This document shows positions 8,156 to 34,374 of a stretch of DNA of 64,000 nucleotides, in pieces. Under the pieces are notes generated by a model, which was not told the DNA's origin, ran no database searches, and saw only the letters and a list, made by a program, of their open reading frames with translations. Numbering within the stretch: position 1 is the first letter of the stretch; the number at the start of each line of letters is the position of its first letter. The translations under genes and the position numbers were made by a program. The stretch is from Piedraia hortae CBS 480.64 (lineage: Eukaryota), in contig MU005969.1 in assembly GCA_010093745.1 (NCBI GenBank), positions 124,001-188,000 of the forward strand, given 5' to 3'.

Positions 8156-8332
8156 GCGTGGCCTTGATACAATCACGATTAGACGTGTAAACAGATGTAA
8201 TAGTAGTGGATAATCCTGTGCATTCTCATCAATGGCATACTGTATGTACTTTCATGGAAGCAATTGAACCATCTAAGAGAGTTTAACAAAAGCAGGACGC
8301 CTCTTCACATTACCATAGTCTACCAGACAGTC

Positions 8333-9849
8333 CTACTCCCCTTTATTAAACTGCACAAGAGCAAACTCCCCACTCCAAGCCCACTCCCTCGCCTTCTTAC
8401 CACCCCTCAACTCCTCATCCTTCCCTTCCGGCAAACCCACCACAACATCAGCCTTACAAGTCCTCAGTGCAAGAACATTCCCCCTCTTCAACGGCCCAAT
8501 CGCCTCCCTAAAACCCGTCGTGGGCTCCCACATACAATCCCCCACAAGCTTCCTATAATTCAAATCCCCCTTAAACACCACCAACCCCGACGCACACAAC
8601 TCCCCGTACAACCCCCTCTCCGCGTGGGGCATCCGCCAAAACGAACCCGGCTGCGTCCAGAACGCATTCGGCCTAAGAACCAACTTCCCCTCAGCATGCA
8701 GCTTGGTCCAATGACCCACCAACTCCCCCAACACCTCCCTCTCCTTCCCATCCAACTCCCACACGGGACTGGCGAGCGCATTGATCAACCCCGCAAAATC
8801 CCTCGGCACCACATCGGACACAAACCACGGAATATCCTTCGGATGAAGCACCACTTCCCTCGCCAACCCCGCCTCAAGCAAATACCCCGCGAAAATCAGA
8901 TCCGCAAAGAGCTCGAAACCGGCGTTATCGAGGATGATATCCACCCTACCGGGAGGTTCGGAAGTTAGGTGGACAAACGCGTCCGCGGAGTCGTTGACTA
9001 GGATCTTTGAGTCGGAGGATGTGCGATGGTTAGAGCTTTGGAGGTGGGTTAGTTGGTCTGGGGAGAGGGAGGTTAGGAGGCTTAGGTCCGTAGCGTTGCC
9101 CCAGAGGGAGATTTTTAGAATCTCGGTGAAGAGGGTTTCGGACGCTTCGAGGGTGGGGGGTTGGGTGGAGAGGGTGTGCAGGATGGAGACGTAGCGCTCC
9201 GCGAGCTCGAGAACGGCGGAGCGAGAGGAGTGGAAGGTTTGGGTTTTTTGGGTGGAGAAGACGTCGTATCCTTGCCAGCGTTGCGATTGGGAGAAGAGGG
9301 TTGCGAGGCGGCTAGGTGGGTTAGTTTCCGTTAGTTTTTTTTTTCCCTTGGGGGGAGATTGCGGATGGTATACCGGTAGAGGTAACATTCGGCATAAAGC
9401 CAGGAGACATTGAACCATTTTGGGTTGCCGCGTTGAGAGAGCTCGTGGTTGTAGATTTCGATGTCGGGTCCGTTGCCTTCGAGTGGGCTGTGGCTATGTT
9501 AGTTGGGTGGGTTTTGGTTGAGATGACGTACGTTAGCCGTCGGTCGTGTTGGACTTCGTATTTGAGGGTTGCAAGAGCTTTGGTGATGTGTTTGCCTTCT
9601 TCTTGACGGCTGGGATCTTCAGTTGCGGAGACGGCTTTGTGCAGATCGTCTATGGCTCCTGTCTGTATTACTTAGCTTGGTTGTTTCTGCGGTGGGAGGC
9701 TGCCCACCAGAATGACTGGCCAGCGGTCCCGGGCAGAAACATAGGCAAACGATGTCTTGTCGCTTGTCGAATACGGTTCTTCGGGAATCAGTATCTTTCC
9801 AGCTATATCGCCTCTTCCATTACTGACCAACGGGAGGATCAAACTCCAT
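8333..9849 (-). CDS. DUF89 / ARMT1-like damage-control metal-dependent phosphatase (5 exons)
   Basis: Spliced N-terminus MEFDPPVEPYSTSDKTSFAYVSARDRWPVIL|TGAIDD...; motifs 'WLYAECYLYR', 'SLWGNATDLSL', 'IILDNAGFELFAD', 'PWFVSDV', 'FKGDLNYRKL', 'LRTCKADVVVGL'. Four short GT-AG introns between ~9310 and 9830. Confidence 0.95.
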
Positions 9850-9951: not shown

Positions 9952-10710
9952 TTACCGATATGGCTCTGCAAAAACGCTCTGTGAAAACGTGCGGTCGTGT
10001 GAACGCGGACTTAATGCACTGGGTGCGACATAAGTGGAACCTCCAGCCGGCCACGACGTTGAAATCTGCATACTGTTCCGCGCACGGCCCTGGTGAAGAG
10101 ATTCTTTTAAGTCGTCGTCCGCTGACGGGCCGTTGCTTGAACGATACCAATGTTTTGTGTAGGGCTTATCCTTGACCGGCTCAGCCTGGACCGGGATATT
10201 CCATGTATCTGGAAAAACGGGTGGCTTTGCGCGAGGTAGTTCGCCTGTTCGTCGATAGTCCAGGACCAACTTCGTACTAATAATGGTCGTGCCCACGAAT
10301 AAAACACATATGAGACCTGCCAGGCCGATTCTGCCGATCCGAACGTGTTCAAAACTAGTGACTTGGCCCTTGGACACGGCTAAAGTGATGACAACGACTG
10401 CTATGAACCAGAGGATGGCGAAAACGAGATCGACGACAGCGTGGATATAAATGCTGCGTCCTGTCCAGGCCGCATTTCGCAAAGAACCCATAAGTTGGTA
10501 GATCAAAGCAATCACGGTACAGAAGCACTATAATCTGGTTAGTTGGACGCCTCAATGTTCATACATAACTCTTACCAGGCCCAAGAGATACTGAGATTCG
10601 CCTGCAAACCTTACGCTCTTGGCCACAACCACAATCCCTGCACATCCTTCAATCGTCATAAAGAGGCTCTGAGCCGCATGGAGGCCAGCTTTGACCTTTA
10701 GAATCGGCAT
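9952..10710 (-). CDS. MARVEL-like 4-TM membrane protein (intron 10528-10575)
   Basis: Exon 1 MPILKVKAGLHAAQSLF... splices in frame to the 9952-10515 ORF; hydrophobic helices and 'AVVDLVFAILWFIA', typical of fungal MARVEL proteins. Confidence 0.7.
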
Positions 10711-10987
10711 CGTGTCTAGTAAGCAGATCTACTGCGAACAGAGAGAGTGATACAGGAGAAAAGAGTGTGAGTCTCTGGGGGAAAAGAGCCCGCTGCACAG
10801 GCCTGGTCATGCTTTATTTGGTTCCCCCCCTCTCGAGACATGGCCGTGTTCCCAATTTGAGACAGGGCAGTGCTTCAAAGGCTGCGACAGGAATAGGGGC
10901 GGATAAACGGTGCGGGCCGCCAACGTGCGGCGGTCCGACCCGTAGCTGATCCTGGCCCAGATGTTGAACGGCCAAACGACTTACGCA

Positions 10988-11605
10988 ATGGACACCTACA
11001 CCCACTATCCGCTGCACGTTGATGCAAACAAGGCTGTCTCAGCCTCTGACGCGGCCATTGCAGAACATGTCGAAGCTGTGAACCGGACACACCGCCAGAT
11101 CCAGGCGCTGGAAACGCCGATGCCGATGCCTCCGCCTCCCGTACACGTAAACCCCAAGCGGTCCGTACAAATCAAGAAGCTAAAGGACACTGGAAATACA
11201 AGCTTCAAGAAGGGCGCGTATGCCGAAGCGCTGAAGATGTACGACCTGGCTATCCGTATGGCGACTGAGCGGCCGCATTGGGAACCGTCCAATCTGTTCC
11301 GGGAAGAGCTCTGTCAGCTGCACAACAACCGGGCGCAGGCCTACATGAGCCAGCAAATGTGGCCCGAAGCCATGATCGATGCCGACGTCAGCATAGAGTG
11401 CAAGCGCGTGGGAAATGCAAAAGGCTGGTGGCGCAAGGCAAAGTGTCTGCAGAATATGGGACGCCTGGAAGAGGCTGTTGAGTGCACAAACACCGGACTA
11501 GAATACGAGTCTTCCAGCCAGAATGCCGACAAAGCCGGTCTCGCGGAGCTCACCACCTTGGTACGAGAGATCAATGCTGCCATGCAGAGCAGGCCGTCGA
11601 CTTAG
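10988..11605 (+). CDS. SEC72: Translocation protein Sec72 (TPR subunit of the Sec62/63 complex)
   Basis: 'PPPPVHVNPKRSVQIKKLKDTGN', 'RPHWEPS.L.REEL..L..NRAQA', 'KGWWRK'. Confidence 0.92.
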   Translation: MDTYTHYPLHVDANKAVSASDAAIAEHVEAVNRTHRQIQALETPMPMPPPPVHVNPKRSVQIKKLKDTGNTSFKKGAYAEALKMYDLAIRMATERPHWEPSNLFREELCQLHNNRAQAYMSQQMWPEAMIDADVSIECKRVGNAKGWWRKAKCLQNMGRLEEAVECTNTGLEYESSSQNADKAGLAELTTLVREINAAMQSRPST

Positions 11606-11940
11606 ACATAAGGCAGCCCAATCTGATAGCGTTGCATCCTCCTCTGGCATGATACCACTACTTCCATATTTGATAGCAATCATCCCCAGATTATGGCGCA
11701 GCAAATCTGAAAGAAGCGATAGACGGGGATCAACGTGGTTCGACGATCCTCTTATGGTTAATCGTCCGTCATACTTTGACATGAATCCGGCCTTGCCCTC
11801 TTTGTCTCTTGTACCGACGCAACGAAATTAACACAAATCTCCTCTGGCTTGCCCATGTTTCGACATGTACACGCGTCCAGTTGTGATATCTGAAACGTCT
11901 CAGCTCGTTGACCATCAGGTGTTCCACACCGCTGCCTATC

Positions 11941-13314
11941 CTACGAGCGATAGTCGGCGTTGATAGAAATGTATTCATGCGATAGATCACACGTCCGGAA
12001 GACGCATTCCACTGTGTCTCCCTTGACGTTGCCATCAGCCAGATCAACCAGTATTTCCACCTTGTCTGCTTCCAAAATTTCACTCGCCCGCGCCTCATCC
12101 ACCTGCTCAGGCGTCCCTCGCGTGACCAACGGCAGCGGCGCCGATCCATCTGCAGGAGCGAACGAAACCGTAGTCTGGTGCGGAACTACCTCCTCCACTT
12201 CTTGCATTGGCACGTCAATTGCGCCGATAGCGCTGAGGATGCGGCCCCAATTTGCATCCTTGCCGTAGAGAGCTGTCTTGACGAGCAACGACCGCGCGAT
12301 GCGGGACGCTGCACTCTTGGCCGACTCCATGCCACGCGTAGTTCGGACCCGGATGGTGATGAGTTTTGTTGCCCCTTCACCATCACACACAACGAGTCGA
12401 GCGAGGTCTTGCATTACCTCGCTGAGAACGCCCAGAAGAGCCTTGGCATCGCCATCTAGTGTCTTAGATGTAATATTCACTGCTGCGACATCTTCTGGGG
12501 CAGCGGCACCGTTGGCTAAAAGGGCGACAGTGTCGTTTGTGGACATTTCGCCATCGACAGAAATACTGTTGAAGCTCCCGGCGTTGGCCAGGCTGAGGAG
12601 TTTCTTCAGCGTCTTCTGCTCGACCTTAACGTCGGTACAGATGACGCCGAGTAATGTGGCCATGTTTGGGTGAATCATTCCAGCCCCTTTGGTCACTCCA
12701 GCTATTCTATACTCTGTTTCCGGATCGGAAGGCAGCCTGAAGCTTCGTGAGACGAGCTTGGGAAAGGTATCAGTTGTGCAGATAGCTTGAGCAGTCTTCA
12801 TCCAGTGCTGGTGATCGGAGCCGAGGGCTCGGGCGGCTTCTGCAATTGCGGGAACGATTTTCTCAATGGGAAGCGTCTGTCCAATCACTCCCGTTGACAT
12901 AACCAGAGTGCTGGGGAGTTCATCCCCAAAGCATTTACTCGCCTCCGCTGCCATCTCCTTGGCGTGCTTCATTCCAACATCTCCAGTCACAGCGTTTGCA
13001 CAACCGGAATTAATAACAACCCCTCGGATATGTGATTCGTTATTTTTGAGAAACTTCATCGAATATGTGACTGGAGCTGCTTTGAATCGGTTCGTAGTAA
13101 AAACTGCAGCAGTATGACATGGCTTTCTGGTAATGATCAAGGCAACATCATCGTATTCCGTGTTGGAAGGCTTGACACCAGCGTGTGCAGCTCCCACGAT
13201 GAAGCCTTTGGGATAAGACCCCGAAGATGGAACATATTTCTGCTTCGCAACTGGAATCGACCTTTGGGTAGAGTAGCTTCGTATCCTCGTCGCACCTCGA
13301 ACAAGCACTCCCAT
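11941..13314 (-). CDS. ARG7: Mitochondrial ArgJ ornithine acetyltransferase
   Basis: 'INSGCANAVTG', 'MSTGVIGQ', 'ICTTDTFPK', 'KGAGMIHPNMATLLG' (autoproteolysis site), 'STNDTV', 'DGEGATK', 'CDLSHEYISINADYRS'; basic N-terminal presequence. Confidence 0.97.
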   Translation of the reverse strand: MGVLVRGATRIRSYSTQRSIPVAKQKYVPSSGSYPKGFIVGAAHAGVKPSNTEYDDVALIITRKPCHTAAVFTTNRFKAAPVTYSMKFLKNNESHIRGVVINSGCANAVTGDVGMKHAKEMAAEASKCFGDELPSTLVMSTGVIGQTLPIEKIVPAIAEAARALGSDHQHWMKTAQAICTTDTFPKLVSRSFRLPSDPETEYRIAGVTKGAGMIHPNMATLLGVICTDVKVEQKTLKKLLSLANAGSFNSISVDGEMSTNDTVALLANGAAAPEDVAAVNITSKTLDGDAKALLGVLSEVMQDLARLVVCDGEGATKLITIRVRTTRGMESAKSAASRIARSLLVKTALYGKDANWGRILSAIGAIDVPMQEVEEVVPHQTTVSFAPADGSAPLPLVTRGTPEQVDEARASEILEADKVEILVDLADGNVKGDTVECVFRTCDLSHEYISINADYRS

Positions 13315-13423
13315 CTTCAAAGGAAAAAAAAAAAAAAAAAAAGTTGCAGCTCTGAAGCTGTCATCCCATCTTCAAAGGAAAAAAAAAAAAAAAAAAAGTT
13401 GCAGCTCTGAAGCTGTCATCCCA
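13309..13423. repeat. Perfect 55-bp tandem duplication containing an A19 tract and the ARG7 start codon
   Basis: TCCCATCTTCAAAGG-A19-GTTGCAGCTCTGAAGCTGTCA starts at 13309 and again at 13364. Confidence 0.95.
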
Positions 13424-18984: not shown

Positions 18985-20064
18985 ATGTCGGCGCTGCAAG
19001 GGACTCGGGCGCTGGACGTGCAGAAGCCTTCGGAGCCGGCCGGCCTGGCCATCGAAGCGTGGGCCCAAGGGTATCTTGTGGGTAGTCTCATCATAATGGC
19101 GTCCATCACGGTCGCTAATATGAGGAAAAACGTCCTCTTGCATAAGCTTATCCTGATTGAGGTATTCACATGCTCTCTTTAACGGTTCAGGCGCTGACCC
19201 ATAAGCTTGTGTTTGGTATGCTACATGGCACCTTCATCTTCACAAACCCTCCGGTATATGCATGGTATCTCAGCACAACAGCTATATTTCTTGTAAGAGT
19301 TTCGGTAGAAGCCAGGCTTTTGCTGACCGAGTCAGAATACCAGTTGGTCTCTACACAACATCATTGCTTGGCTGAAAAATCGGCCGTTTTTGCCAAGATG
19401 GGGCAGCAGACTATACCTATTCACCGTTCTTCTCGTGCAGCCTTATTGGGTACTCGAAATTGTGGCCAACTTTCTCTATTTTGGTCAGCGAAGCCGGCTC
19501 TTTGTCTACACGAGGCCTTGGGAGGCTCTTTTCAGAGACCCTTGGTGGGTCTTCACCACCTGCAGCCTGCTCTGGAACATCAAGACACGATATGAATTTG
19601 GGTTTTGGGAACTCATCAGGCTCTCGCCCCGGTTTGGCGTGCTGCTCGCTGCCATGGGGCTGAGCCTCTGCTTTATTCTGGTCGATATTCTTTCTGTCAC
19701 GAACGTATTCCACGTCGCCGGGAACCCAGAAGGCATCAACCCATTTTGGAAGCTGGCGTTTGTGTTCAAGTGCCTCACCGATTCCATCATTCTCGATGAT
19801 TTCAAAACCGCACTGGACCGCTTCAAAGAGCACAAGCTTAACCTGATCGCAGGCACCGCTTTTGGGAGCCAGGTTTTGATTAGTGGCAGCGAGAGACAGC
19901 AGAACTTTTCGAGTCCACCTAACGATAGCAGCGTTCCCATGCCACGCCCAGTGTCTAATCGTAGAACAACTGATGGGCGCCATGATTTGAGCAATATGGA
20001 TCTTGTTTCAGCTCTAAGAATGGATGGAAAGGGCGTTACCACGGAGTTACGAGACACGCTTTAG
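18985..20064 (+). CDS. Conserved fungal multi-pass (7TM/GPCR-like) membrane protein; introns 19162-19205 and 19293-19335
   Basis: Spliced product 'EAWAQGYLVGSLIIM...NMRKNVLLHKLILIE|LVFGMLHGTFIF...|N.SWSLHNIIAWLK...EALFRDPWW...GINPFWKLAFVFKCLTD'; both introns keep the frame. Confidence 0.85.
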
Positions 20065-20276: not shown

Positions 20277-22256
20277 ATGGCAGGCAAGCGCCTCGTCGAT
20301 GCCACCGCCTTCCTAAACGCCTCTTCTTCCATTGCGAAACAGCATTTCAGCCTTAGGAGAGAGCAGTGGGAGGTTCTAAAGAAAACTTCGTCGGTGGCGA
20401 AAGCCGTCAAGGCGCAAACTGATAGGGTTACCGTTACCGCTCGTGCGGCTGCTGAGTTGGCAAAGCGGTTTAGTGGGCCTGAAACAGGAGCCGGAAGCTT
20501 CTATGGTGCTCCATCCAAGGATGCAGAGGCGCAGGAATGGAAAACATCCTGGCAGAGAGATGATGCAACCGTGTCAGCTGGGGACGTGACAGCACAAACA
20601 CAACCGGAGGCAACGATCCTCACCGAGAATGTCTTTCCAACAGAACCTCAATTCGTTCATGAGCCATTCCTGGATGAAATCGAGGCAACACCAGGGCTGT
20701 CGCATAGGATCGTCAAGCCCAGCCATCGAAGTCCCTATGCAGGCAGACAGAAACTACCGCCCCAGCCTTTGCCAGAAATGGTAGAGGCTGAGGAAAAGTG
20801 GCGAAGAGAGGCACAGGCAAGGGACGATATAACACTTGAGAAAAGCGGTGTTGCGAAGGAAGGAAACATCTCAAAGACCGCGGTGCAAATGACACCTCCA
20901 AGTCGCGATTATGAGCTGCGAGAATCAAGCGTACCTTCGTCCCGGTTTGGGCGTTTCTGGCAATATAGTAGCTTAGCCACAAGCATGACGTTTGGAGCTG
21001 TGGGCGAAGGCCTCCGGCGTGCGGTTGGAGGCCAAGGCTCGGGAGCTCTGATGTTCAGCGAGAGTAACGTCAACCGCCTCGTGGCTGGCCTCAGTCGGAT
21101 GCGCGGGGCGGCTCTCAAGCTCGGCCAAATGATCAGCATACAAGACTCCAAAGCCCTACCTCCTCAGATCCACACCATTTTACAGCGTGTGCAAGACAGT
21201 GCCGACTACATGCCTGCTTATCAACGCGACCGAGTTCTGGTCCAGAACTTGGGGGCGGACTGGAGGAGCCTTTTTTCCAACTTCGAAGAGAAGCCATTTG
21301 CGGCAGCATCAATTGGTCAGGTACACCGGGCAACGTTGGCATCGAACGGAAAGGAAGTCGCTGTCAAGGTGCAGTATCCTGGAGTCCGGGACAGTATCGA
21401 TTCCGACTTGAATAACATCTCGTTGCTTCTCACAGCCAGCAAGGCTCTACCAAAAGGATTGTTTTTAGACAGAACGATTGCAAATGCAAGAGTGGAACTG
21501 GGGTGGGAATGCGATTATGAACGCGAGGCCAAGGCTTGTAAACACTTTCGAGGTCTGCTAAAAGACGACAGCCAACATTTTACTGTGCCAGAGGTGTACA
21601 CTCATGCGTCGGGCCCTGGCGTGCTCACCGCCGAATATCTGAAGGGAGCCACTGTGACCAAAATCGCAGATCTTTCGCAGGAAGAGCGAGATCGGATCGG
21701 CACACAGGTACTCCGTCTCTGTCTGCGGGAGCTGATGGAATGGCGCTACATGCAGACAGACCCCAATTGGACAAACTTTCTGTACAACCGCCAGACGCAA
21801 AAGTTAGAACTCCTAGACTTTGGTGCCAGCCGGTCTTATCCGGATGAGTTCATTGAGCCCTACGTGTCCCTGCTGATAGCAGCTTCAAAAGGTGACAGGG
21901 AACGCTGTGTAGAGCTGTCAATTCAACTGGGCTACCTGACAGGCCGAGAAAGCCCGGCAATGCTGCAGGCACACGTTGACAGCATCATGACACTAGCCGA
22001 ACCCTTTGTGCTCTCGGCACCGGAGACGTACGACTTTAAAGACCAGACTATTACAGAGCGAGTGCGCAGCAACATCGGACTTATGCTGCGGGAGCGGTTG
22101 GCGCCGCCGCCCGAAGAGACTTACAGCCTGCATAGAAAGCTGAGCGGGGCATTTTTGCTGTGTGCGCGGTTGCAGAGTAGAGTCAGGGCGCGCGCCTTGT
22201 TCGCGAATGCAATTCGGGTATGGGAGCAACGGGCGGGTAAAGTAGATAGTCCCTAA
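20277..22256 (+). CDS. COQ8: ABC1/UbiB atypical kinase Coq8
   Basis: 'LSRMRGAALKLGQMISIQD' (KxGQ), 'PFAAASIGQVH', 'VAVKVQYPG', 'MQTDPNWTNF', 'LLDFGA'. Confidence 0.96.
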   Translation: MAGKRLVDATAFLNASSSIAKQHFSLRREQWEVLKKTSSVAKAVKAQTDRVTVTARAAAELAKRFSGPETGAGSFYGAPSKDAEAQEWKTSWQRDDATVSAGDVTAQTQPEATILTENVFPTEPQFVHEPFLDEIEATPGLSHRIVKPSHRSPYAGRQKLPPQPLPEMVEAEEKWRREAQARDDITLEKSGVAKEGNISKTAVQMTPPSRDYELRESSVPSSRFGRFWQYSSLATSMTFGAVGEGLRRAVGGQGSGALMFSESNVNRLVAGLSRMRGAALKLGQMISIQDSKALPPQIHTILQRVQDSADYMPAYQRDRVLVQNLGADWRSLFSNFEEKPFAAASIGQVHRATLASNGKEVAVKVQYPGVRDSIDSDLNNISLLLTASKALPKGLFLDRTIANARVELGWECDYEREAKACKHFRGLLKDDSQHFTVPEVYTHASGPGVLTAEYLKGATVTKIADLSQEERDRIGTQVLRLCLRELMEWRYMQTDPNWTNFLYNRQTQKLELLDFGASRSYPDEFIEPYVSLLIAASKGDRERCVELSIQLGYLTGRESPAMLQAHVDSIMTLAEPFVLSAPETYDFKDQTITERVRSNIGLMLRERLAPPPEETYSLHRKLSGAFLLCARLQSRVRARALFANAIRVWEQRAGKVDSP

Positions 22257-22752: not shown

Positions 22753-24957
22753 ATGAGCGCGATCCGTCAAACTTCACCGTTGCGCGTGTATAGAGACGGC
22801 GACGCGTCGTATACGCGCAACGACTACGGCGTGTCACCCGCGCAACAGCAACGCAGTGACGTAGAGGTTGCCCTCTTCAACGCGCTGAGGCCGCTCGGTG
22901 ACGCTTCGGCCAGACAGAACATTCAATTCCACCCGCTCTCGACACCTCCCCGTGCATTTTCCCCGGTCAAGTCCTGCAGTACGCCGCGGCAGCCGATGGC
23001 TACGCACGGCCTTGAGGACCTCGACATTCCCCCGCCTGCACCCGTTGGGCCTCCTACGGACTCGCTCCAGAAGCGCACACCAGCATCGGGCAGCTTCCCG
23101 TATTTGCAGACCACCGAGCAGCCTGCCACCGACAAAGAGAACGAGTTCGCGATGTACGCGCCCCAACCGATGGGAGGCGCGGGAAGGAGCACGATGAAGC
23201 GGAGTCGGACTGAGACGCCTCCGTCCGGCGAACGCAGCAATGCGAAAAAGATGCGCACCGACCTTGAGTCTGTTGGCTTGCCGGAACCTGAGGAAATGCC
23301 GCCCGTGTATGACGAGGCCGATGGCTCCAAGCCAAACTACAGCTACGCGCAGCTGATTGCCATGGCCGTGTTGCGTGCGCCCACCCGCCGTCTGACGCTA
23401 GCGCAGATCTACCAGTGGATCACCAGTCACTTTGCATATTATCGCACAACGGACACGGGATGGCAGAACAGCATTCGCCACAACCTGAGCCTCAATAAGA
23501 GCTTCGTGAAGGTAGATCGCCCAAAAGACGACCCTGGCAAAGGCCATTACTGGACCATTGTGCCTGGCGAAGAGCGCCTGTTCCTTGTCGAGAAGAAGAA
23601 TGCAGTGCGCCGCACCGTCCATCCCGAGGTTCCGGCCCAGATGCAAATGATGGCGCAGGAACTCGACTTCCGTCCCTCGACCGCGCCGGCCATGAGCCAC
23701 TTCCCGCTTGTGCCTCGGATGAACACGAAACTCATCGACTCTGCCCGCTTTCCCGACGAGGCGGAGCTTTCGTCCAACGGAACGATTCCTGCCTCTGATC
23801 CAGCTCTCCAGGAGGACGAGGCCACGGCTCCGCATCATACCAGCTTTCGTTCTTCGCCGCCTCCGGTGCATCTCGCTTCATCTCCTCCGCGGGCTCCCGT
23901 GCATGTGCAGCGCAAGGCGACGCCTCCTCCGAAGCCGCACTTTCAGCCTCCCAGTCGCTCCGGAGACCATCAGAAGTTTGGAGTTCCCGGCGACAGTGGT
24001 TACTGGTCGTCTATCGAATCGTCAGTAGCGCGCGCGAATGCCCACCAGCTGCTATCTGAGGCGGACAATGGCAAGGCCGGTCGCGCCGAGGTCGAAATCG
24101 CACGCCTTCGTAGCTCGTCGTTCGACCTTAGCCCGACGAAGGGCGCGCGTTTTATAACGTCTCCCACTGACGACACGCCGACCACTCCGGCTGTATATCG
24201 TCAACCTTTACGCCCTCCCCCAACCGTGTCCCCGAACACGAACCTGAAGAATCATCGCATGCGCATGAAGGCCATGCTAGGTTCGCCGCTCAAGGGCCAA
24301 AGCCCCCAGGCCGAACACGTCTTCAGTCCTGCCTTGCGCGATGACAATTTTGCTCTAACTCCGTACAAGTCGCCGTGCAAATCCGGCAATCTTGGCCCCG
24401 AGGGCTACCTTGACTTGGCTGAGGGCCCAGCTTCAGCCAACACTTCTCCAGTCAAGCAGCCCATCAAGCGTCCGTCTCTCACGCGTGCTGCCACCAGCGC
24501 CAACCTCCTCGCCACCGTGACCGGCAATTTGCTGAAGCAACACAACATCAACCTCAACCCTCCTGTCGATCCTGCCATTCAGGATGAGGGTTCCATCACG
24601 CCCAATCACGGCCAGGATGCGCAATTCTTCGGGTCTGTGCTACGTCATCGTCCCGCTCAGGAACAAGCGAATACTTGGCAGGCGCAGAACCATACGGAGT
24701 ACAGCGACGTTTCCGAGTCCCGTGAACTTGTAAATCAGACGAATAGCGGCGTAATTCTCAGCGACGACGATCCTGTTGTGGACGTTACACAGAACTTCCC
24801 CGCCATCGGAGGTGCGTCGGCGCAGTACACCCACCACCAGGCCGGAGCCGCCATGAAGGGTTCCGGAGGCTACTCCAATCAACCAATGGGCCCTCCTCCC
24901 CAGCCGCAGCCTCGTCCCTCTGGTGCGCCTCTCCAGCGCAGCAGGAGCGGATGGTAA
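22753..24957 (+). CDS. Forkhead transcription factor, Hcm1/Sep1-like
   Basis: '[13 protein letters not shown]...[10 protein letters not shown]...[28 protein letters not shown]'; no FHA domain; many SP/TP sites and a KEN box (DKENE). Confidence 0.92.
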
Positions 24958-25599
24958 ATCCTCCTCTGCAACCTCTTTAACGACTGTTTACGACTCTTTA
25001 CCCGGGAAAGAAAAACCAGCTAGGCTTGCTTTGCATCAGGATTGCGGTTTTTTGGTTTTATTTTTGCCTTGTACCAATTGCAAGACCCTTTTGACGAAGA
25101 TTACGGGGCTATGACGAGCGGGAGTTCTGTAATGATGGTCGGGAATGGGGCGCAAGGAGTTTGTAATGACTATTTAGGTTCTCTTGAGGGAGTTTCCTAT
25201 GATTGTATGTGCCTTTCTTTTTACCCGACTTTGGGGAGCGTGTGTGAACGTTGAACTGCGCGCGGGAGCGTGTTAAGTGCATTTGAGTCAATATTTGGTA
25301 CATTCTACTCGTGGGCGTGATAAGTTGAGAATGCTCTTATGTCATTTTTATCTCGCTGACCTTGCTCAGATGAGATTGTGCGATGCCAAGAAAACGGCGC
25401 GGGCCATCTTGTATTCTTTCAGTACTTCCCACAGACGGCTCAAAATCCTCAAACTGTAAACCCTTGAGAATGTCATTCTGCAGAAGCATGGAAGAGGATT
25501 TTGCTCACATGCCATTTTACCTGGCCCTCTCTAATCCGGAACCCAGCTGTTTCTAAAAGTCTGATGCTACCAGAGAAGACAAGCGGATGTTCTATTAGC

Positions 25600-27240
25600 G
25601 ATGAATGCGCACCTAGAATACGAGATCGCACCTGACGTTTACACTTGGTCCAGCTTTGCGGAGCTCGAAGGAAATACGCACGGTCAATTTGAACGATTGC
25701 AATTTTACATTCTGTGGTATAGCGGGATCTTGCAAAATCTGTCAATGCAACTTTGGGGGCAGCTTGGAGTCTCCGGCAATAGCAGGAGAGAACATTTAGT
25801 CTGCCGTAAACTGGGCGGCAGGAACTGTCAATGCGGGTACGCATGTTGCTTCTGCATGGAATTTGATGGGCTTATAAGTATCGGTCTCTGCCTGGCGAGA
25901 GTGCTGTGCGATCGAAAATACCGCCCAATATCTGCCAGAGAGCTCGAACGCTCACCAAGAGCCTGTTCACGCAAATCTTTGGATCTCGATCTCGATCATA
26001 TGTATTGTGGACCTAATCCTACTGGAGAGCAATAAATTTGCAATGTACCGATCAAGCAACTTCATTTCCGGTAAGGCACCTCTGCTCATGCGGACCAGAT
26101 GCTTGTGCCTTGGCAGAATATTTGCTGTGCTGTCGTTTGCACACGCAGAAATGTTGGCCTGCACCGGCCCGATTCGCTTGGTACATCACTTGACAGGGTT
26201 CAAAGCGGGACTCTAAAGATGGTTTGCTTGCTTGTACACCGCGCAAGTATTAAGAACGACGATGGCTTTCCGCTCAGCCTTGGCGGCACCGCAATGGCCA
26301 AATGGGTGCCCCAGTTAAACGCACCACAGCTACCTGGAAAAGCAGCTCCATATCAGGAAATCCGCCCTTCCTCTCGCAATGGGTTGAAGTACATCAAGAG
26401 TTGCTCGATAGCCTTAGTTTCTCTATCGCGCACGAGAGGCTAAAGGCCCCGAGCTGCCTACTGAGTTCGCACACTCGAGACATCGGCAGTGACAAATCCA
26501 CTATTGTGGTTCCAACTTGTGGTGAGTTGATGAAGTTCGTCAATAATCACGTTTCTTGCAGCAGGCGGCGTAGACATTATGGAGGACCAAGATTTGCAGA
26601 ATAAAGTCAGCAAGGCTGCAGTCAGGCGTTATTCTACATTGCCGGCGGCAATCATCTCCGGGCTGTCTTGTCCGATGAACTCTACCTGCTGTCGCAACGA
26701 CATCACTGTTCCCGGAGCGACGAGCCATGCGGCATCTGCGGCGTCGTGAACGAGGACCCTATCGCCCCCAGAGGTGACCACATGACACAAGCAACCCACC
26801 CCCGGCCTCAAACTCTCAACCACCGGCGCTTCGAATGGATCAGGGAAATGGAGTGCCTGGATGCAAATCTTTCGGCCGTCGGCAAGCGTTGTGCTCACTG
26901 TTTCATCGACGGTATCCCACCACGTCAGTCTCCGGAACGATGTGTAGACTTTCCAGAGACCAGAGCCGTTCGGGAGGCCATGCATTTCTAAGAAAAGACA
27001 TTGCCATCATTGCCTCATGCCCGACGAATATTACCGCGGGCCAAACTGCATATACAAGAATATGGTGTTGCAGGTCTGTCTCGGCTGCTGGGTGCATGAG
27101 CCCTGTCTCCTGGTGGAAGATGCACTTTTGCGAGCAAGATCCCCGAGCTTGCTCAAGTCTTGCCCTTCATCACTCCATCTTCCACTTCATTTGAGCGAAA
27201 CTGGTCGACATTCGGCCACGTTCACTGCCTCTCGGCGGAG
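25600..27240 (+). pseudogene. Probable decayed telomere-linked helicase (TLH/RecQ-type) gene
   Basis: Fragments in shifting frames: 'VSAWRECCAI', 'KSTIVVPT' (helicase motif Ia-like), 'HLRAVLSDEL...HC....EPCGIC' (RecQ Zn-binding-like), and Cys-rich C-terminal blocks 'RCAHC', 'HCHHCLMP...CIYKNMV'. Many stops; the helicase core is mostly missing. Confidence 0.45.
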
Positions 27241-27250
27241 GCTATAATTC

Positions 27251-27481
27251 ATACAGCAAAACATCGATGCTCTCGAAGCCAACACGAAAAATGTAAAGAT
27301 CGCAGCTGCAAATGTACGAAAGAAGTATGTCAGTTTAATTGAGAGACTCCGCAGCACCAGAAAACTCCCTGAGGCGAAACTGTCCATAGAGGACCTCGAG
27401 GGTGCTGTGAGTGGATTGGTAGATGCTACCGACAGACATGCCAATGCCATTAGGGCCCATTCTATGTCACTGGTCCTATGA
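27251..27481 (+). pseudogene. 5'-truncated coiled-coil ORF at the left edge of the foreign-looking island
   Basis: Open frame IQQNIDALEANTKNVKIAAANVRKKYVSLIERLRST...HSMSLVL*, with no ATG at its 5' end; stop lies 9 nt before the next ATG. Confidence 0.5.
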
Positions 27482-27490
27482 GCAAAGAGT

Positions 27491-28138
27491 ATGTCCGCTC
27501 CGAATCAGAGTGGCAAACAAGGCAACGTACCATCTTCCAGTTCCAGCATTGTGAGCTCCAATACTATTCCTGTGGCTCCATCTCCTGGTCCTACAAGGCG
27601 TGTTGTACGCAGGGTCATGCATGCACCTAGCACTACTGGAACTGTACCGGCTACCCCCATCGATGAAGAGAAACCAGATTCTTCATCGGTGGCCCCGGAG
27701 GATACAACGAGTCCGACGGCACCAGAAGCCCCTGTGGATACTCCTCCTGTATCATCGGTAAGGCGCATTGTATGCAGATCTGCTTCATATGTCCCAAGTA
27801 TTTCCGAGACTGAGTATACGGAAGCGTCGCCAGCACAAAAGTCCAGGCTGCCATCTATCGCGAGGGAAAGCATTAATCCTTTAGAGGCAGTCCATGCCAA
27901 ATTTATCGCCCAGTGGTTTGCAGAAAATATGGGTGGAGATGCTACCTATTCGGAAATGATACAAACTACTGTGGAGGAAAATGTAGTCGGGACAGACTTC
28001 TCCCAGAGTGTTCTCTCCTATATTAGGTCTCGTCTAAGAGAATCTACTGGGTATGATGCATACGATGAGTTTCAACAGCCAGAATCGGGGACTACTGCAT
28101 GGTGCAAAAAGTCTTTTAATGAGATAGTTGGGTTGTAG
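27491..28138 (+). CDS. Hypothetical protein (S/P/T-rich N-terminus, helical C-terminal domain)
   Basis: Intronless 215-aa ATG-started ORF; no family recognised. Confidence 0.55.
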   Translation: MSAPNQSGKQGNVPSSSSSIVSSNTIPVAPSPGPTRRVVRRVMHAPSTTGTVPATPIDEEKPDSSSVAPEDTTSPTAPEAPVDTPPVSSVRRIVCRSASYVPSISETEYTEASPAQKSRLPSIARESINPLEAVHAKFIAQWFAENMGGDATYSEMIQTTVEENVVGTDFSQSVLSYIRSRLRESTGYDAYDEFQQPESGTTAWCKKSFNEIVGL

Positions 28139-28157
28139 TCATGCGCATGTTTCAAAA

Positions 28158-29230
28158 CTATTTGGCAGATGGTGATTGCGCTTGTGCATATGCCTGTGCC
28201 ATTGTCTGACCTTTTATGGCAGCTTGGATAAAGATAGTTTTCTTTGATGGCGGCAGTGTACTGAGTAGATGGGACATGGGATTGGTAGCACGAGGCTCCG
28301 GTACAGAGGGATCCCAATTTAGTTCGTTTTCAGAACCAGGTACAATAATCAGAGACTTGATGGATTTCAGCATATCTATTTACTGTGGAGAAAGCAATCC
28401 ATCTAGGTACTTCATTCTCTCAATCAATCTCACCACTGCTTCCATGATTGGGCGTGTCAGTGGTCTCGAAAGTTCGCCCACCCTTGACTCTGGAAGCACG
28501 GTAGGTGTATCTGGATCTGTTGGTGCTATGAGAGGCATGAGGGAGTCGTGGAATTCTACCACATTCTTTACGAGGCGGTGACTAATGTCGATCGTATGAT
28601 CGAAATTGTTGTTCGCTGTTAGATTAGTTGTTTTTTGCACATAGTTCCGCCTGCCGGCTTCGGCGGGCAGTCGCGTCGTCTTTCTTTCATCGCTGTTTCC
28701 TGTCAACACCAGTGGTATTCTTGAACTGCACACTCGGGATGCTGTACCTGACCTTTGAGCTGTCTTCTACACAATATTCGAGATTGGTGAAGTTGGCGTC
28801 GACGCTATCGTGGTAGAAGATACTTCTATTCTCCATTCGCAATCGGACAATCTCAATGAGATGTGATATGATACATGTGCATATTTTATACTTGTTGATC
28901 GTCTTAAATCCCTGATGATACCAAGTACCTTCTCCTGATGAAGTCTGTCTGCGTGATTGAAGGGATTCAATACTTGGACGTGCATCTATGCTTGCATTTT
29001 GGTTCTGGGAGATGATTACATTCTGTAGCTCCATCAGTTCACACATCCTCTCCATCATATCTGTCTGTCCTGCAACAACACCTTCTATGCGCTGTATTCT
29101 GGCGTCCATCTTTGCTACTGTGTCTGCCATTCTCTTGGATTTAGTGTGGATTGAGGAAAGCAGCATATTATTAGACGGTCCTCCCATTTCCTTCATCACA
29201 TCACCTATGTTGTTGTAGGAGCCGTTGATC
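28158..29230 (-). pseudogene. Disrupted unknown gene with N-terminal coiled coil
   Basis: Collinear ORFs 28687-29199, 28380-28733 and 28158-28373, separated by one frameshift and one in-frame TAA (28380-28382). Confidence 0.55.
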
Positions 29231-30473
29231 GCATGTCGTGTCTTTATGAATTTTTAAACGAGAAATCCATTTGATCGTGGGTTTTAATGTATTTAGTTGT
29301 ATATCTTGGCTTTTTGTCAGCAGTAAGAATGTGGTCACTAGTCCTCCGCAGTGGGGGCAACTCCCTCTATGTCCTAGCATGCCTTTGTATAAAGTCTGAT
29401 AACGTAGACGAAGCAATGACAGAGATCCAAATTCCAACTGTGCCTGCTCACAAAACATCCAAGCACACTCTCGGTATAGTGATTTGGTCGATAAAGAAAG
29501 TAAGGCGTCATAGTCCGAAGGACTCGAATTGCCCCTGGTAGCAGTGAGGATATTTCCCGAGGCTCTGAACCCCTTTCCAGTTGTACAGTGTTGTATGGAA
29601 AGAACTGCCTACATTGACCCCTTGCCTTTCGTTGCCTCGGAGCTTGAACCAGGAGAAGCACGACCCGGGCATGCCTTATAGGTATGTTTGGTATCGAATC
29701 CTGATATTATGGCCCAAACTCATTTTTATCCCGATGAGGCCGGAGATGTTGGACCTTAACCACACATAACACAGTCCTGAAAAAAGCGTCACAACTTCCT
29801 ATAAGCGTCATGACTCCATGAAAATTCTTATGCGATTTCCTCAATCATGTGACTTCCGGAGATAACACAGTTCTGCAAGAAGCGGTACACCCGTTTAGGA
29901 AGCGTCGTGACAGCATGAGAATTTTTATGTAAGTTCTGCACTCAATTACGTCATTTGGCATCATATCATGGCGTTGTAGGAAATAAAGTTTAAGAATATA
30001 AGCGGTAGTACGCTTTATGACCCATCTGTGCAGGTATAGCTCCCAACCAGTTTTCATCCCGAGTAGCAACCGTCACTTTTGGAGACACGAGGTCTTTTTG
30101 TCAGCTTTGAATGCTCTGATTGCTACGAACTGACGCTGGAATTAATGGAGCCAAACTATGGTAGCACATGATAAGGGCGTGTGGTTCTTGTTGTCCTGGT
30201 AGGACAGCCCTTTCACGACTGCTGTGAATGACTTCAACCTCGAGCCAAGCTACGTCTGTGATGGTATTTGACGTGTTAAATCGCTATCAATACCACGCCT
30301 TTGCAGCAGATCTCAAGCAATCCAACAAGCGCAAACGCACACGAAAAACTTTAAATTATTATAGCAAGCAAATAGCAAATCCGTAAAGGGACATCCGAAC
30401 CTCTGACAAAGAAAAAAACAATTAATACTTTTGTACCCCAGTCATGCCCGGAGTCAGCGATAACATCCATCAT

Positions 30474-30580
30474 CTACACCCACCCGTCCTAGTGCGTGTG
30501 CACTAAACCCCCCATCTCCACCGCCAGTTCATGCCCACGGCGAAAGGCGAAGGACATGTCCATCTTGGTAACCTCCCTCA
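30474..30580 (-). pseudogene. Paralogous 3' fragment of the adjacent cyclin
   Basis: EVTKMDMSFAFRRGHELAVEMG aligns with ELTKIEMAFCFLLGFELGVGMG of the cyclin; both end in TGGGTGTAG (read on the minus strand). Confidence 0.75.
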
Positions 30581-30600
30581 ATCAGCCTACAATCATCGAA

Positions 30601-30610
30601 NNNNNNNNNN
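30601..30610. other. Assembly gap (10 N)
   Basis: Run of n characters. Confidence 1.
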
Positions 30611-30614
30611 CTCT

Positions 30615-31199
30615 CTACACCCACTCCTCCCAGCCCGGAGTACATTCCAACTCCCCCATCCCCACCCCCAACTCAAACCCAAGCAGGAAGCAAAACGCCA
30701 TCTCAATCTTCGTCAACTCACTCGTCTCCATGTCCACAGCCATCGCAACCGTCTTATGTGCATGAATCGAATCGATCAAATACTTCTCCGCGACGCGCAC
30801 AGAAGCGACCGCAAGGGCATAAACCGTCTCCTTCGTAATCGGAATCTTCTTCCCTAGCACGCAGAGGCGGTAACAGTATCTCTTCGCGATGAGGTAGACC
30901 GCCGCTGGGAAATGCGCGTGGCAGTGCAGGTTTACGAGGATGTTGCGGATGCTGTAACGGTTTGCGTATGTGGTGGTCATGGATTGCCATGCGGATTGGA
31001 CGAAGGGGTTTTTGGAGGTGTATTTGAAGGGTTTGCGGGAGTTGTGGTCCGCGGTGTTTTGAAGGGTGCAGGCGAAATCAAGCATGGCGGTCGTAGGGTC
31101 GAATGTTAAGGGGCTGTTGGGTGGGGATGGGCTTGGCGTGAGTGGGAAGATGTCGAAATGGTATGATGGCGCTGGGCGCGCGTATGCGACTGGTGCCAT
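30615..31199 (-). CDS. Divergent Pho80/Pcl-family cyclin (possible extended start at 31493)
   Basis: Cyclin-box pattern 'PAAVYLIAKRYCYRL......IT..TVYAL..ASVRVAEKYL.D.......A........EL..IE..FCFLLGFEL.V'. Confidence 0.75.
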   Translation of the reverse strand: MAPVAYARPAPSYHFDIFPLTPSPSPPNSPLTFDPTTAMLDFACTLQNTADHNSRKPFKYTSKNPFVQSAWQSMTTTYANRYSIRNILVNLHCHAHFPAAVYLIAKRYCYRLCVLGKKIPITKETVYALAVASVRVAEKYLIDSIHAHKTVAMAVDMETSELTKIEMAFCFLLGFELGVGMGELECTPGWEEWV

Positions 31200-31339
31200 G
31201 GTGAAGGTGCTGTTGAGGTATGTCCTGATGAGGTATGGGAGATGTGTAGTGGGTTGGATGGGGTTATGGCTTGGTTGCTGGAGAGTCATCGTGGTTGCCC
31301 CTGCCACTTTTGGTGGGATTGTTGGCCTGGGTGGATGCT

Positions 31340-31472
31340 GTGGTTGAGTTAAGTGTGCTGCTTGCATGGTCCGAGGTTGGGTGAAGTGTACTAGTCGCAC
31401 GGTCTGTGGTTGGGTAAAATATGCTACTTTCATGGTCTGCGGTTGGGTCAAGTGTGTTACTTGCGTGGTATG
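31340..31472 (-). repeat. Degenerate 33-bp tandem repeat, about 4 copies
   Basis: In frame: TQVTHLTQPQT / MKVAYFTQPQT / VRLVHFTQPRT / MQAAHLTQPQH. Confidence 0.8.
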
Positions 31473-34374
31473 CTGTACACTTGAACCAGCCATTTCCTAA
31501 CCCATCGCCTTGGTTCGGGCGTGGATTGGCTGATCGGAGATATAGAGAGAGAGAGAACAATTCTAGAATTTTGTGCTGGTGAAAATACTTACATACATCC
31601 GTGGCGATCCACAATCGACTCATCGGGAGATGAGTAGAGTCTGTCCCGTAGAGGCTTCAGGAGTCACTCATGGGAAGGGCGCCGGTCCTGAATCATTAGT
31701 TTGACAGCCTCTTCGACGTCTTTCGCGTGGGGCTCAACTGCCATATTCCAGGGACACAGGAAAATTTGAGAGGATTGCACTATGGGAGTAAATCGACGAA
31801 ATTCCTGTGGCGCGGGGCATCACGTGCCATTGGCAGATGCAGCAAAATGCAGATTCGCGTGTGCTGATTGATCTGCACGTCCTTCAGCAACGGATAACCA
31901 CTATCCAATGGCAGCCGGCACTAAAGTGCCATTTTTGCGTGTGGCGTCGCTGAGCGGGAAATGCTTTTCATCAAGATGGCTGATGATTAGCGCTTACTGA
32001 AAGTGGGATTATCCATCACTAATGTCATTGATCAACCTTAAATCAATGAGCCACCTTAACATACAAACGGACAAGGTGTCTCCACAGCATTGAAGATTTC
32101 CGATAAAAGCTTTCCAGGCGGCTTTAACACGCAGTTCTGTTACGGGATGACATTCATATGATCGGTGTCATTGCTGCTAACCACGCACTGTGTGGCACAG
32201 ATCGCTCTAACCGATTTTTCTTTATGTGCGGCGGTTGTCCCCAATTTCCCGCACTGACCAAGACCAAGGTGCCTTATTAATCAAGCTTCATTCTTGTTGC
32301 GGGAAAATTCTCAACCACCCCCCCTACTGGGTGGTAAGCCGCAGGAAGACCTTGTTGGGAAGGCTTGACTCCCAACTGCAAAATCTGAATTTCGAAAAAT
32401 ATCCAAGCGGAAGACGCCCAGGGTGCGGGGTGGAAATTCTCGCCAACCCACTTGATGGGTGGCAAGTCCCTGACTCCCTTTTGTGGAGATCAAATGCTTG
32501 CCACAACACGTAATTCTCGACTGAGTTGAGGAGAAGACATCCTTAATGCGGGATAATTCGAGACTAGTCCATGATGAAACTTACAATTTAGCTGAGCACT
32601 CTGAGCTGCCCACTTGGCTTGAAAAACTTCCTGAGGAATCCAGGAGCCATTACATATCCCTGGGTGAAAGCCACCGATCGAAGTTTGAAACGGATCGAGA
32701 TTCAAAAGAAGACAAATCGTGGCTAAGGCAAACCACGTGGATTATTGAATTAGAAGAAACCTCAGAAGGTGGCAAAGCTGAGGGCAAGATCCAGGTTGGT
32801 TTTGCGTTGGAAGCATCTGCAAGACTTAATCAGAAAAAGTAGATGGCTCTGGACTAAGCCACAAGGACGTTAATCTACATCCTGAAAGAGGGACAACGGA
32901 AAGCCCTTTTCGAGTGCAGCACAAGGGAAGATTGCCAAACTTTGCAAATTGTGACTATTAATTCTTTGTAAAACCAAAGAAATATGCAGATCCAACACGG
33001 GCCTTCACATCTCAACCTTCTAGAGGTAATCTGAAAAGCGGGCAAGCTTATGTTACCATTGGCTAGCGTTGCAGGGTTATCAGCGAGTACTAAACAGAAA
33101 GCCATCCCGCTGAGTCGTTTGCACACAACATACGCTGGGCATTGTAGAAATTCTGGCAGAAGCACTAATGCTCAAAGATCCCATAAGACACGTCGAAAAG
33201 TTTCAAAGATCAGACACTGGCATCCCCGAGCGCTGACTATTCTCCATGATCTAAGCACTATTCACATATGATGTTGCCAATTATCACAGCAACAGAGTGT
33301 GTGCAAAGGCAGGCCCAATGAGAGCTCATATGGCATGGTGATACGAACGCTTGTCAACTCCCTGAGGTCAATAATCTTCCCAAGCTGGCGTAGGAGGCTG
33401 AGCATATGAACACTGCACCATCAAAAGGCTCAACACGATCCCAAACCTGCCGAACCCGCCAAAGGCAAATACGTGTAACCACCTGGGATTCAATGCTTGT
33501 ATATCAATTTGGCCAAATTGCTGGACATTTGATCAGTCTAAACTTTATAAGTTCCCCACACGCAGACCTCAAACCCGCCACAGAGAGCCTCTCAGTCTCC
33601 TGCGGAGTTAGAGCTACTACATCAAGTCACTTGGCCCAGCACCGTGTTCTAATTATGAATGTCAAGGGAGTGTTGTACAGTTCAAGTCTGTGTACGGATG
33701 TCGTTTCAACCCGTTCCGAACCCGGAACCAGACAATCCAATCTTGAAGCTAGTAACCTCAAGCATAGACATATGCCGAGCCTGAAGAGCGGTGTCTACAT
33801 GTAGCCAGCACAGCGGAGAAACTCCCTGGATAGTAAAATCGATCTTGTGGAGACTGTTCTAATAAGTAGCGGCACCTCACAGGTGTGTCAGTATACACGC
33901 GTCTCTAGAGCTATACAAGAAAATTTCTGAGTACTCGAACCCTGGTCAGGGATATGGGTCATCACCTACGGATCGCTCCGTGGCGACCTGCACAACAGAG
34001 ACGACATTTGAAATTCAGAGCCAAAGGTGAAGTCGGTTATTCAAGTTGATTGCTCGCCGCGGTTTCATGGTGGGTTTGTGCGCATCGTTACGTATCTGAA
34101 CCTTTTGGTTGGTTTCTGGTTCGTCGAAGCCGACGTCATAGAACGTATATTTTGCGGATAGACAGGCCACAATTACTTTTCGAGGATTGGGGGAGATGGG
34201 CTAAGTGGCAGTGTTCTGGGGACCGGTCTCCTAGCAAAGCCCTCAGACCATCGAATAGCTGTCCCGTGCAGATTGGCGATACAGGATAACCAAACCAAGG
34301 CTTCTACGATCTCAAAAAGATAAGCCACGTCTTCCACAAGACTCCTGCAAATGTATACAGCATATCTGCATGAG

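Follow-up and report, generated by a model that had tools for sequence, protein, structure and literature searches.

We analysed a 64-kb stretch of the genome of Piedraia hortae CBS 480.64 (hereafter, the window) and conclude, with a probability of about 0.88, that its positions 27251-29241 are an endogenised, decaying two-gene fragment of a compact double-stranded DNA (dsDNA) virus-like element. This foreign segment makes up ~2.0 kb of the 3.06 kb that a preliminary description, made without database searches, had flagged as a decaying piece of a DNA virus or similar element, and it consists of two convergent, intronless, AT-shifted genes. Gene 1 is the C-terminal half of a protein whose full-length relatives also carry a domain resembling uracil-DNA glycosylase (UDG), and gene 2 is a convergent gene of ~325 codons. 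The suspicion of foreign origin gained support for this segment from 28 relatives of gene 1, from the same gene pair on a metagenome contig, which we call L001, and from the decay of the sequence. The features below were delimited with a profile from 16 members of the gene 1 family (A1), a profile from 16 relatives of gene 2 (A3) and tblastn, and are listed by window position.

27245-27247, plus strand: in-frame TAA, the left edge of detectable gene 1 homology
27251-28138, plus strand: C-terminal ~290 codons of gene 1, found with the A1 profile and tblastn; the UDG half is missing
27479-27481, plus strand: in-frame TGA, which splits gene 1 into a 'coiled-coil' open reading frame (ORF) and a 215-aa ORF
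27491, plus strand: ATG of the 215-aa ORF, which runs from 27491 to 28138
28136-28138, plus strand: TAG stop codon of gene 1
28139-28157: spacer of 19 nt between the convergent stop codons
28158-28160, minus strand: stop codon of gene 2
28158-28556, minus strand: 3' part of gene 2 (pseudogene), found with the A3 profile and by tblastn with the 323-aa protein of L001
28585-28714: dispersed host repeat of ~130 nt with a G+C hairpin, which lies inside gene 2 and causes its frame break
28696-29241, minus strand: 5' part of gene 2, a coiled-coil helix and the start of a globular domain, found with the A3 profile and tblastn
29242-30300: AT-shifted flank (GC 0.446), which holds a 135-codon minus-strand ORF with a CPHCGG motif

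In a six-frame translation of the window the A1 profile had only one match, at 27251-28123 (profile positions 243-521, E 3.6e-68), with an envelope extending back to ~27209. When 28 family proteins were compared with the window by tblastn, each gave a single significant match, which was at gene 1. The preliminary description had correctly placed the stop and start codons at 27245, 27479-27481, 27491 and 28158 and the 19-nt convergent spacer, and had read the plus-strand part as two tightly packed ORFs 9 nt apart. However, the relatives align unbroken across the TGA at 27479-27481, with the same frame on both sides. Because they align straight through this codon, the two ORFs belong to a single truncated gene interrupted by a premature stop, and the idea of two separate genes had to be given up. 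No variant was seen at the TGA in contigs of two sequencing runs, X1 and X2. What is left of gene 1 includes a helical hairpin, a Pro/Ser-rich linker and a conserved helical end domain of ~85 aa, and it keeps 8/9 invariant and 6/7 near-invariant columns of the C-terminal half.

The left edge of this homology is sharp. An abrupt change at ~27245 had been noticed before and was borne out: profile homology begins at 27251, and the 99 codons upstream (26948-27244) do not resemble the family (profile score -4.9, a value reached by 264 of 500 shuffles). A UDG remnant upstream of 27245, suggested by a MAFFT alignment, was rejected on that profile score and its comparison with shuffles. Neither tblastn nor the profile located the UDG half of gene 1 in any part of the 64 kb. 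On the plus strand, 26948-27244, 27248-27478 and 27482-28135 form one reading frame of 397 codons, whose only interruptions are the TAA and the TGA, so that the upstream segment is in frame with the foreign gene.

Other searches with the window sequences returned little. A word-based search with the 215-aa ORF recovered only itself (1 of 208 candidates), a 'longer' word-based search with the read-through frame recovered none of 5902 candidates, Pfam showed nothing above the cut-off for the window ORFs of the region, and in the ESM Atlas a 188-aa frame had a best score of 0.81 and no family. Exhaustive HMMER searching with the read-through frame as query yielded 29 proteins at E<=1e-3, one of them the ORF itself and the others 28 relatives; 23 were at E<=1e-10 and 9 at E<=1e-30. 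Fifteen relatives are full-length (505-546 aa), and another, P0004 (429 aa), is cut at its N-terminus. Residues from ~242 to the end of the relatives align with query residues ~101-393, which begin right after the TAA.

The second line of evidence is the gene neighbourhood. A metagenome scan with A1 found two contigs, L001 (31.4 kb, of which 21.5 kb with 22 ORFs were examined; all statements on its gene content cover this part) and L002 (2.4 kb). On L001 the gene 1 member at 9986-11527 (plus strand) faces a convergent 323-aa ORF at 11566-12537 (minus strand), tail to tail and 38 nt apart. The window has this pair in the same tail-to-tail order, with 19 nt between the stop codons. Only these 2 of the 22 ORFs of L001, gene 1 and gene 2, match the window.

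Gene 2 was detected in two collinear pieces. A3 positions 18-194 align to 29241-28696 (E 2.2e-50), the first ~17 residues not being detected, and positions 199-322 align to 28550-28170 (E 1.7e-31). With the L001 323-aa protein, tblastn placed residues 29-184 at 29205-28717 and residues 183-322 at 28568-28161. The relatives in A3 were found by word-based search, whereas the search for gene 1 was exhaustive; no named fungal protein is among the 16. It had been proposed that broken frames continue to ~30.3 kb. This was correct as far as 29241, where they belong to a single minus-strand gene, but nothing was found for 29242-30300.

The window copy of gene 2 is a pseudogene. On the minus strand, 28158-28379 and 28380-28766 are one frame with a single TAA, and 28687-29253 is in another frame. 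This TAA (28380-28382) replaces a Gln that is invariant in 16/16 relatives. Of 29 invariant columns, 19 are kept, 8 are changed and 2 are uncovered; 11 of the 19 covered near-invariant columns are kept, and the end branch of the window copy is 1.69, against a median of 0.28. Between A3 positions 194 and 199, where the profile expects 4 residues, the window has 145 nt. Pieces of five or more further X1 contigs resemble the window over 28585-28718 alone (~88-94% identity) and diverge beyond it, and summed X1 depth over this repeat is 171, compared with ~12 beside it. The repeat is single-copy within the window and forms a G+C hairpin closed by TTCG; it is negative in Rfam, which had 0 matches across 25000-30590. 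Because a multi-copy host repeat coincides with the extra DNA in gene 2, we conclude that it was inserted after the arrival of the fragment. Gene 1 is truncated and each gene carries a nonsense codon; we regard the fragment as dead or nearly so.

The composition of the locus agrees with the earlier remark on its AT-richness and its A/T-ending codons. GC is 0.447 and 0.439 at 28-30 kb versus 0.519 for the whole window. The G+C content of third codon positions (GC3) is 0.37-0.50 in the pieces of this region and 0.54-0.75 in 17 long host ORFs. Set beside the donor type (L001, 0.30-0.42) and the host, window pieces at 0.41-0.50 are intermediate. The longest stop-to-stop frames in 27245-30300 are 218, 188, 146 and 135 codons, lengths reached by 3, 0, 0 and 0 of 1000 mononucleotide shuffles, respectively. 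The 146-codon frame lies antisense within the 215-aa ORF (27505-27945, minus strand) and is probably a by-product of a Ser/Pro/Thr-rich coding strand. Repeat-induced point mutation (RIP) is indicated by TpA/ApT >=0.89 together with (CpA+TpG)/(ApC+GpT) <=1.03. At 27-30 kb the indices are 0.64-0.73 and 1.28-1.47, with similar values in the flanks, and RIP was rejected as the source of the stop codons and the AT shift, both indices being outside its range.

The fragment is joined to host DNA. A contig of the DNA run X1, which may be the source of the assembly, spans 23880-28712 unbroken, from a forkhead gene into the fragment, and a contig of X2, from a second study, spans 25408-28340 with 0 differences. 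No joints were reported in these contigs, and those of X2 do not cover 29790-30580. The left edge of the fragment is ~2.3 kb downstream of the forkhead ORF and the right edge is ~1.35 kb from an assembly gap. Other long ORFs of the window are of housekeeping type (Forkhead, ABC1, MFS, prolidase, MMM1, uL2, PIG-P, ArgJ and Brix). Among solved ribosomes, uL2 of the window has its highest scores with 7r81 and 7olc (Neurospora and Chaetomium; 414 and 410 bits), against 384 bits for 7pzy and 370 bits for the next group, which are yeast entries; from this comparison, the host is probably a filamentous ascomycete. In a different part of the window, at 13309-13418, a 55-nt unit with a run of 19 A is perfectly duplicated in tandem.

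Neither flank was assigned to the element. In 29242-30300 the CPHCG motif of the preliminary description is indeed encoded (a CPHCGG-coding stretch at ~29343-29366, minus strand); this flank, including the ORF with the motif, has no Pfam family, no match from the 22 L001 ORFs and none by tblastx, and foreign origin is supported for 27251-29241 only. On the left, plus-strand frames occur at 25565-26443 (two stops), 26254-26991 (one stop) and 26948-27244 (none), with Cys-rich CxxC stretches. A RecQ-like relic had been suspected here, a suggestion that received no support: among 29 ORF pieces and 4 read-through frames, none had a Pfam family above the cut-off, and two frames had 0 matches among PDB sequences. 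It is probable that 25565-27244 is another dead coding region.

The nature of the donor can be approached through the full-length gene 1 relatives. One source names five family members 'uracil DNA glycosylase'. The best match of the family profile among sequences of solved structures was mimivirus UNG (entry 5X55; PMC5538708) at 4.6e-4. The L001 member matches TIGR00628 'ung' at 4.5e-6, which is below the cut-off of that model, and P0003, a full-length relative, gave weak UDG leads in the ESM Atlas (0.76-0.77). An AlphaFold model of a family protein has a mean pLDDT of 74, with high values at 1-200 (~73-93 over most of it) and 450-532, and shows an alpha/beta domain (1-237), a helical hairpin (240-328), a disordered region (328-444) and a five-helix end domain (450-532). 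With residues 1-237, Foldseek found 16 UDG chains at E<=1e-3, and UDGs filled all 50 rows listed. Structure comparison (VIA) gave Deinococcus UNG at Z 12.7 (root-mean-square deviation 3.7, 198 residues aligned), mimivirus UNG at Z 11.0-11.1 and vaccinia D4 (8q3r, the E9-A20-D4 holoenzyme) at Z 9.1; matches to the UDG domain and the hairpin took up its rows. Judging from this model, the N-terminal 237 residues of the full-length family have a family-1 UDG fold. The model of gene 2 (pLDDT 82.8) has a long helix followed by an alpha/beta globular domain; Foldseek had 0 matches at E<=1e-3 in PDB and BFVD, and in a VIA-wide search only the long helix (39-98) was matched, by coiled coils, with Z up to 6.9.

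Both catalytic residues of the UDG domain are changed. By the definitions of the five UNG motifs (PMC5538708), the water-activating Asp of GQDPYH is Asn in 15/15 members covering the site (GQNPYP) and the His of HPSPLS is Asn in 16/16 aligned members (NPA(A)); the Pro-rich and uracil-pocket (..IN) motifs are kept. In a more distant member (L002, 1237-2433) the motifs are GQSPYP and HPAA. Because this member retains the loop His, the catalytic state varies within the wider family. Vaccinia D4 is both a UNG and a processivity factor (PMC10253040). By analogy with this poxvirus protein, we infer for the full-length family protein a non-catalytic DNA-binding role or that of a replication accessory factor. 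The donor gene 1 would then encode ~530 aa, comprising a family-1 UDG fold with Asn at both catalytic positions, the hairpin, a disordered linker and the helical end domain, and donor gene 2 would encode ~325 aa, a coiled coil plus a globular domain that had no fold match.

The preliminary description had also proposed that homologs might be patchily distributed and syntenic with viral-type genes. In the examined part of L001 this was seen for an RNA polymerase subunit, a capping-like protein and two helicases, but not for a capsid, DNA polymerase or packaging ATPase. The polymerase subunit is an 806-aa Rpb2-like protein (Rpb2_6 1.1e-13, rpoB_arch 1.6e-13, archaeal Rpo2 1e-8). The helicases are a 462-aa P4/D5-type protein (TIGR01613 2.5e-12, phrog_1156 3.8e-9) and PIF1 (6e-39), and an RNase H-NADAR protein is also encoded. 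A 691-aa capping-enzyme-like protein has a TFIIS-type zinc ribbon, weak Pfam matches to mRNA_cap_C and a methyltransferase (E 0.14 and 0.025), and KxDG and S-adenosylmethionine (SAM)-methyltransferase motifs spotted by eye. Two proteins have weak F-box-like N-termini. The examined DNA is 95% coding with 39.6% GC, median gaps of ~40 nt, no sign of introns and no tRNA genes.

A palindrome, CAAC-N2-6-GTTG, occurs 12 times on L001 against 0.71 expected, and 0 of 100 shuffles had as many. Its copies (among others at 37-47, 1035-1045, 3696-3706, 8236-8246, 9011-9021, 9963-9972, 19570-19579 and 20480-20490) are mostly 15-40 nt upstream of ORF starts, often between divergent genes, and it may serve the element's own polymerase as a promoter. 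The window has 2 copies versus 5.8 expected and none inside the fragment. The longest contigs with either gene family cluster at 24-34 kb, several of them at 30.1-31.9 kb, and one, that of P0003, is 56.9 kb; from these sizes, a genome of ~30 kb may be inferred for the element. As a separate observation, P0024 and its cluster are labelled as hypothetical proteins of 'Listeria monocytogenes' in third-party assemblies, on contigs of ~6.6 kb; these copies look as though DNA of the element or its host had contaminated bacterial read sets.

Gene 1 is found in other fungi as well. The named carriers are five species of Pezizomycotina in three orders, a patchy distribution, and all five copies consist of the C-terminal half only:

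Golovinomyces cichoracearum: C-terminal-only copy of gene 1, 313 aa
Blumeria graminis: C-terminal-only copy of gene 1, 294 aa
Neofusicoccum ribis: C-terminal-only copy of gene 1, 294 aa
Sclerotinia borealis: C-terminal-only copy of gene 1, 249 aa
Phyllosticta citrichinensis: C-terminal-only copy of gene 1, 203 aa

For the tree we required at least 200 residues from the C-terminal half, which 22 rows had and eight, among them the Phyllosticta copy, did not. In this tree S. borealis is placed with a full-length member (support 86/89), and a starred clade (97/90) unites four other full-length members with Neofusicoccum, the mildews and the window copy, which lies closest to P0003 (48% identity). 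The four fungal copies in the tree thus occupy two places among full-length members, with long branches (1.36-1.99), a topology compatible with two or more insertions of element DNA into fungi. Three of the named copies (P0006, P0008 and P0039) start within ~15 residues of one point, the start of the helical hairpin, as does the window copy, and the other two (P0015 and P0027) begin further in.

Taken as a decaying piece of a virus-like element, the segment would consist of the 3' half of gene 1 and the whole adjacent convergent gene 2, joined into a gene-dense fungal chromosome. Its DNA may have arrived by illegitimate insertion of the end-joining type and would now be functionless. Several observations weigh against this reading. 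With regard to the donor, no capsid, packaging ATPase (A32), family-B DNA polymerase or VLTF3 gene is among the 22 ORFs of L001. Because capsid, packaging and DNA polymerase genes are missing from the 21.5 kb, 'virus' cannot be claimed, and both a virus and a capsid-less virus-like element are candidates for the donor. Scans of IMG/VR with the A1 and A3 alignments and the L001 polymerase subunit, and of GTDB genomes with A1 and A3, found no relative, and the link of the free contigs to fungi rests on the integrated copies only. With regard to the locus, a run of N (30591-30601) parts the fragment from a Pho80-type cyclin gene (30615-31496), and the linkage of this right-hand host gene therefore rests on scaffolding. 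The near-common start of the fungal copies is not what random truncation predicts. Finally, the window gene 1 is well preserved, with an end branch of 0.93 against a median of 1.3, and its 215-aa ORF is carried in a protein collection as a predicted protein (P0001, identical); this preservation fits a recent arrival or selection rather than plain decay.

The last point leads to the alternative that survives best, which we nevertheless regard as unlikely: the C-terminal half of gene 1, as the 215-aa ORF or in a longer form before the premature stop arose, might have been kept for a fungal function, for example interference with related elements, so that only gene 2 decays. The predicted protein P0001 speaks for it, and so do the open C-terminal-only ORFs of 203-313 aa in five named fungal genomes, none being named for gene 2. 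The conserved columns (8/9 and 6/7 for gene 1 against 19/27 and 11/19 covered ones for gene 2) point in the same direction, but the difference is not significant (Fisher p = 0.12). The end branches likewise differ (0.93 with a median of 1.3, and 1.69 with a median of 0.28, respectively); however, the two trees sample different relatives and their branch lengths are not comparable. The exhaustive search for gene 1 and the word-based one for gene 2 were also unequal in sensitivity, the TGA strips the helical hairpin from the 215-aa ORF, and the fungal copies are on long branches.

It is improbable that contigs of the L001 type are integrated chromosomal elements, with the window sequence a scrap of one, that is, cargo of a large fungal mobile element. 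This would be in line with the fact that integrated copies alone tie the family to fungi, with a left flank (25565-27244) that resembles another dead coding region and has no family, and with the 56.9-kb contig of the closest full-length relative P0003, which is longer than the others. However, the dense coding of L001, its apparent freedom from introns, its RNA polymerase subunit, capping-enzyme-like protein and primase-type helicase, and its private promoter-like palindrome fit autonomous replicators of cytoplasmic type and not the cargo of transposons or Starship-like elements. The lengths of several independent contigs, 30.1-31.9 kb, are as expected of a complete small genome, and no transposase, integrase or tyrosine recombinase is among the 22 L001 ORFs. 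The remaining alternative, that both genes are fungal and were captured by the element, leaving decayed cellular originals in the window, could appeal to the lack of homologs in viral libraries (IMG/VR 0, BFVD 0 for gene 2, and no tblastn match in phage and plasmid collections), but is very improbable given that the fungal copies are truncated without the UDG half, patchy (five named species, three orders) and interleaved with full-length copies in the tree, that both window genes are pseudogenes with donor-like low GC3, and that the tail-to-tail pair sits among replication and transcription genes on L001.

A wider picture can be drawn, which we offer tentatively and at somewhat under even odds. 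The segment would be the fossil of an undescribed ~30-kb dsDNA virus-like lineage that infects, or formerly infected, filamentous ascomycetes. The lineage would be of cytoplasmic type and would encode an RNA polymerase and a capping enzyme of its own, along with helicases of the P4/D5 and PIF1 types, and would use a palindromic promoter private to it. Its hallmark would be a catalytically dead UDG fusion that acts as a one-chain D4-A20 processivity bridge, whose C-terminal half might have been kept repeatedly in fungi. Dikarya are not currently known to have large DNA viruses or free virus-like elements.

Several consequences follow for the study of such elements. The two-gene syntenic fossil ties anonymous ~30-kb polymerase-encoding contigs to Pezizomycotina hosts, and A1 and A3 are marker families with which such elements may be found in fungal cultures and read sets. 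A UDG fold that lacks both catalytic residues and carries a long tail may be a replication factor without enzymatic activity. Early-diverging fungi are known to harbour endogenous pieces of large DNA viruses, and in the literature searched we found none reported for filamentous ascomycetes. In the survey of such pieces in early-diverging fungi by Gong et al. 2020 (PMC7017919), the word Ascomycota has 0 occurrences in the available text. A 1.5-Mb region is described in Rhizophagus (PMC10640383), and the Discussion of a 2026 paper on Mycodnaviridae (PMC13533422) asks why Dikarya are not infected. A putative link between Ascomycota and a giant virus was drawn from single virions (PMC9894930), and endophytes were surveyed by read classification (PMC12297863). 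The main texts searched contain no description of the donor element family. Although one may exist elsewhere, the lineage appears so far undescribed.

Three known systems are worth comparing. Mimivirus UNG (5X55) and vaccinia D4 share the UNG fold of the donor N-terminal 237 residues. The donor protein differs from family-1 UDGs in being without the catalytic Asp and His and in having a C-terminal extension of ~300 aa, and the window copy is this extension only, with no UDG fold. Pieces of Nucleocytoviricota in fungal genomes (PMC7017919, PMC10640383 and PMC13533422) differ in that they were described in early-diverging fungi, whereas ours is in Pezizomycotina. Moreover, the donor contigs here are ~30 kb and not hundreds of kb, and none of the hallmarks capsid, PolB, A32 and VLTF3 was seen in the examined part of L001. 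Those pieces and ours are alike in being integrated, intronless, shifted in composition, decayed and patchy, and in a donor that encodes an RNA polymerase subunit of its own together with a capping-type enzyme and a helicase of D5/P4 type. Linear plasmids and virus-like elements of the pGKL type (Heneghan, Salzberg and Wolfe 2026, PMC13348850) are smaller, 9-13 kb against ~30 kb here. The contigs described here also encode a UDG-fold fusion and PIF1 and P4-type helicases, whereas 'uracil' and 'Pif1' have 0 occurrences in the available text of that paper. On the other hand, pGKL-type elements are likewise AT-rich dsDNA replicators of compact, gene-dense build that encode an RNA polymerase, a capping enzyme and a helicase of their own, and fragments of them are known to be integrated in the nuclei of Pezizomycotina (PMC13348850).

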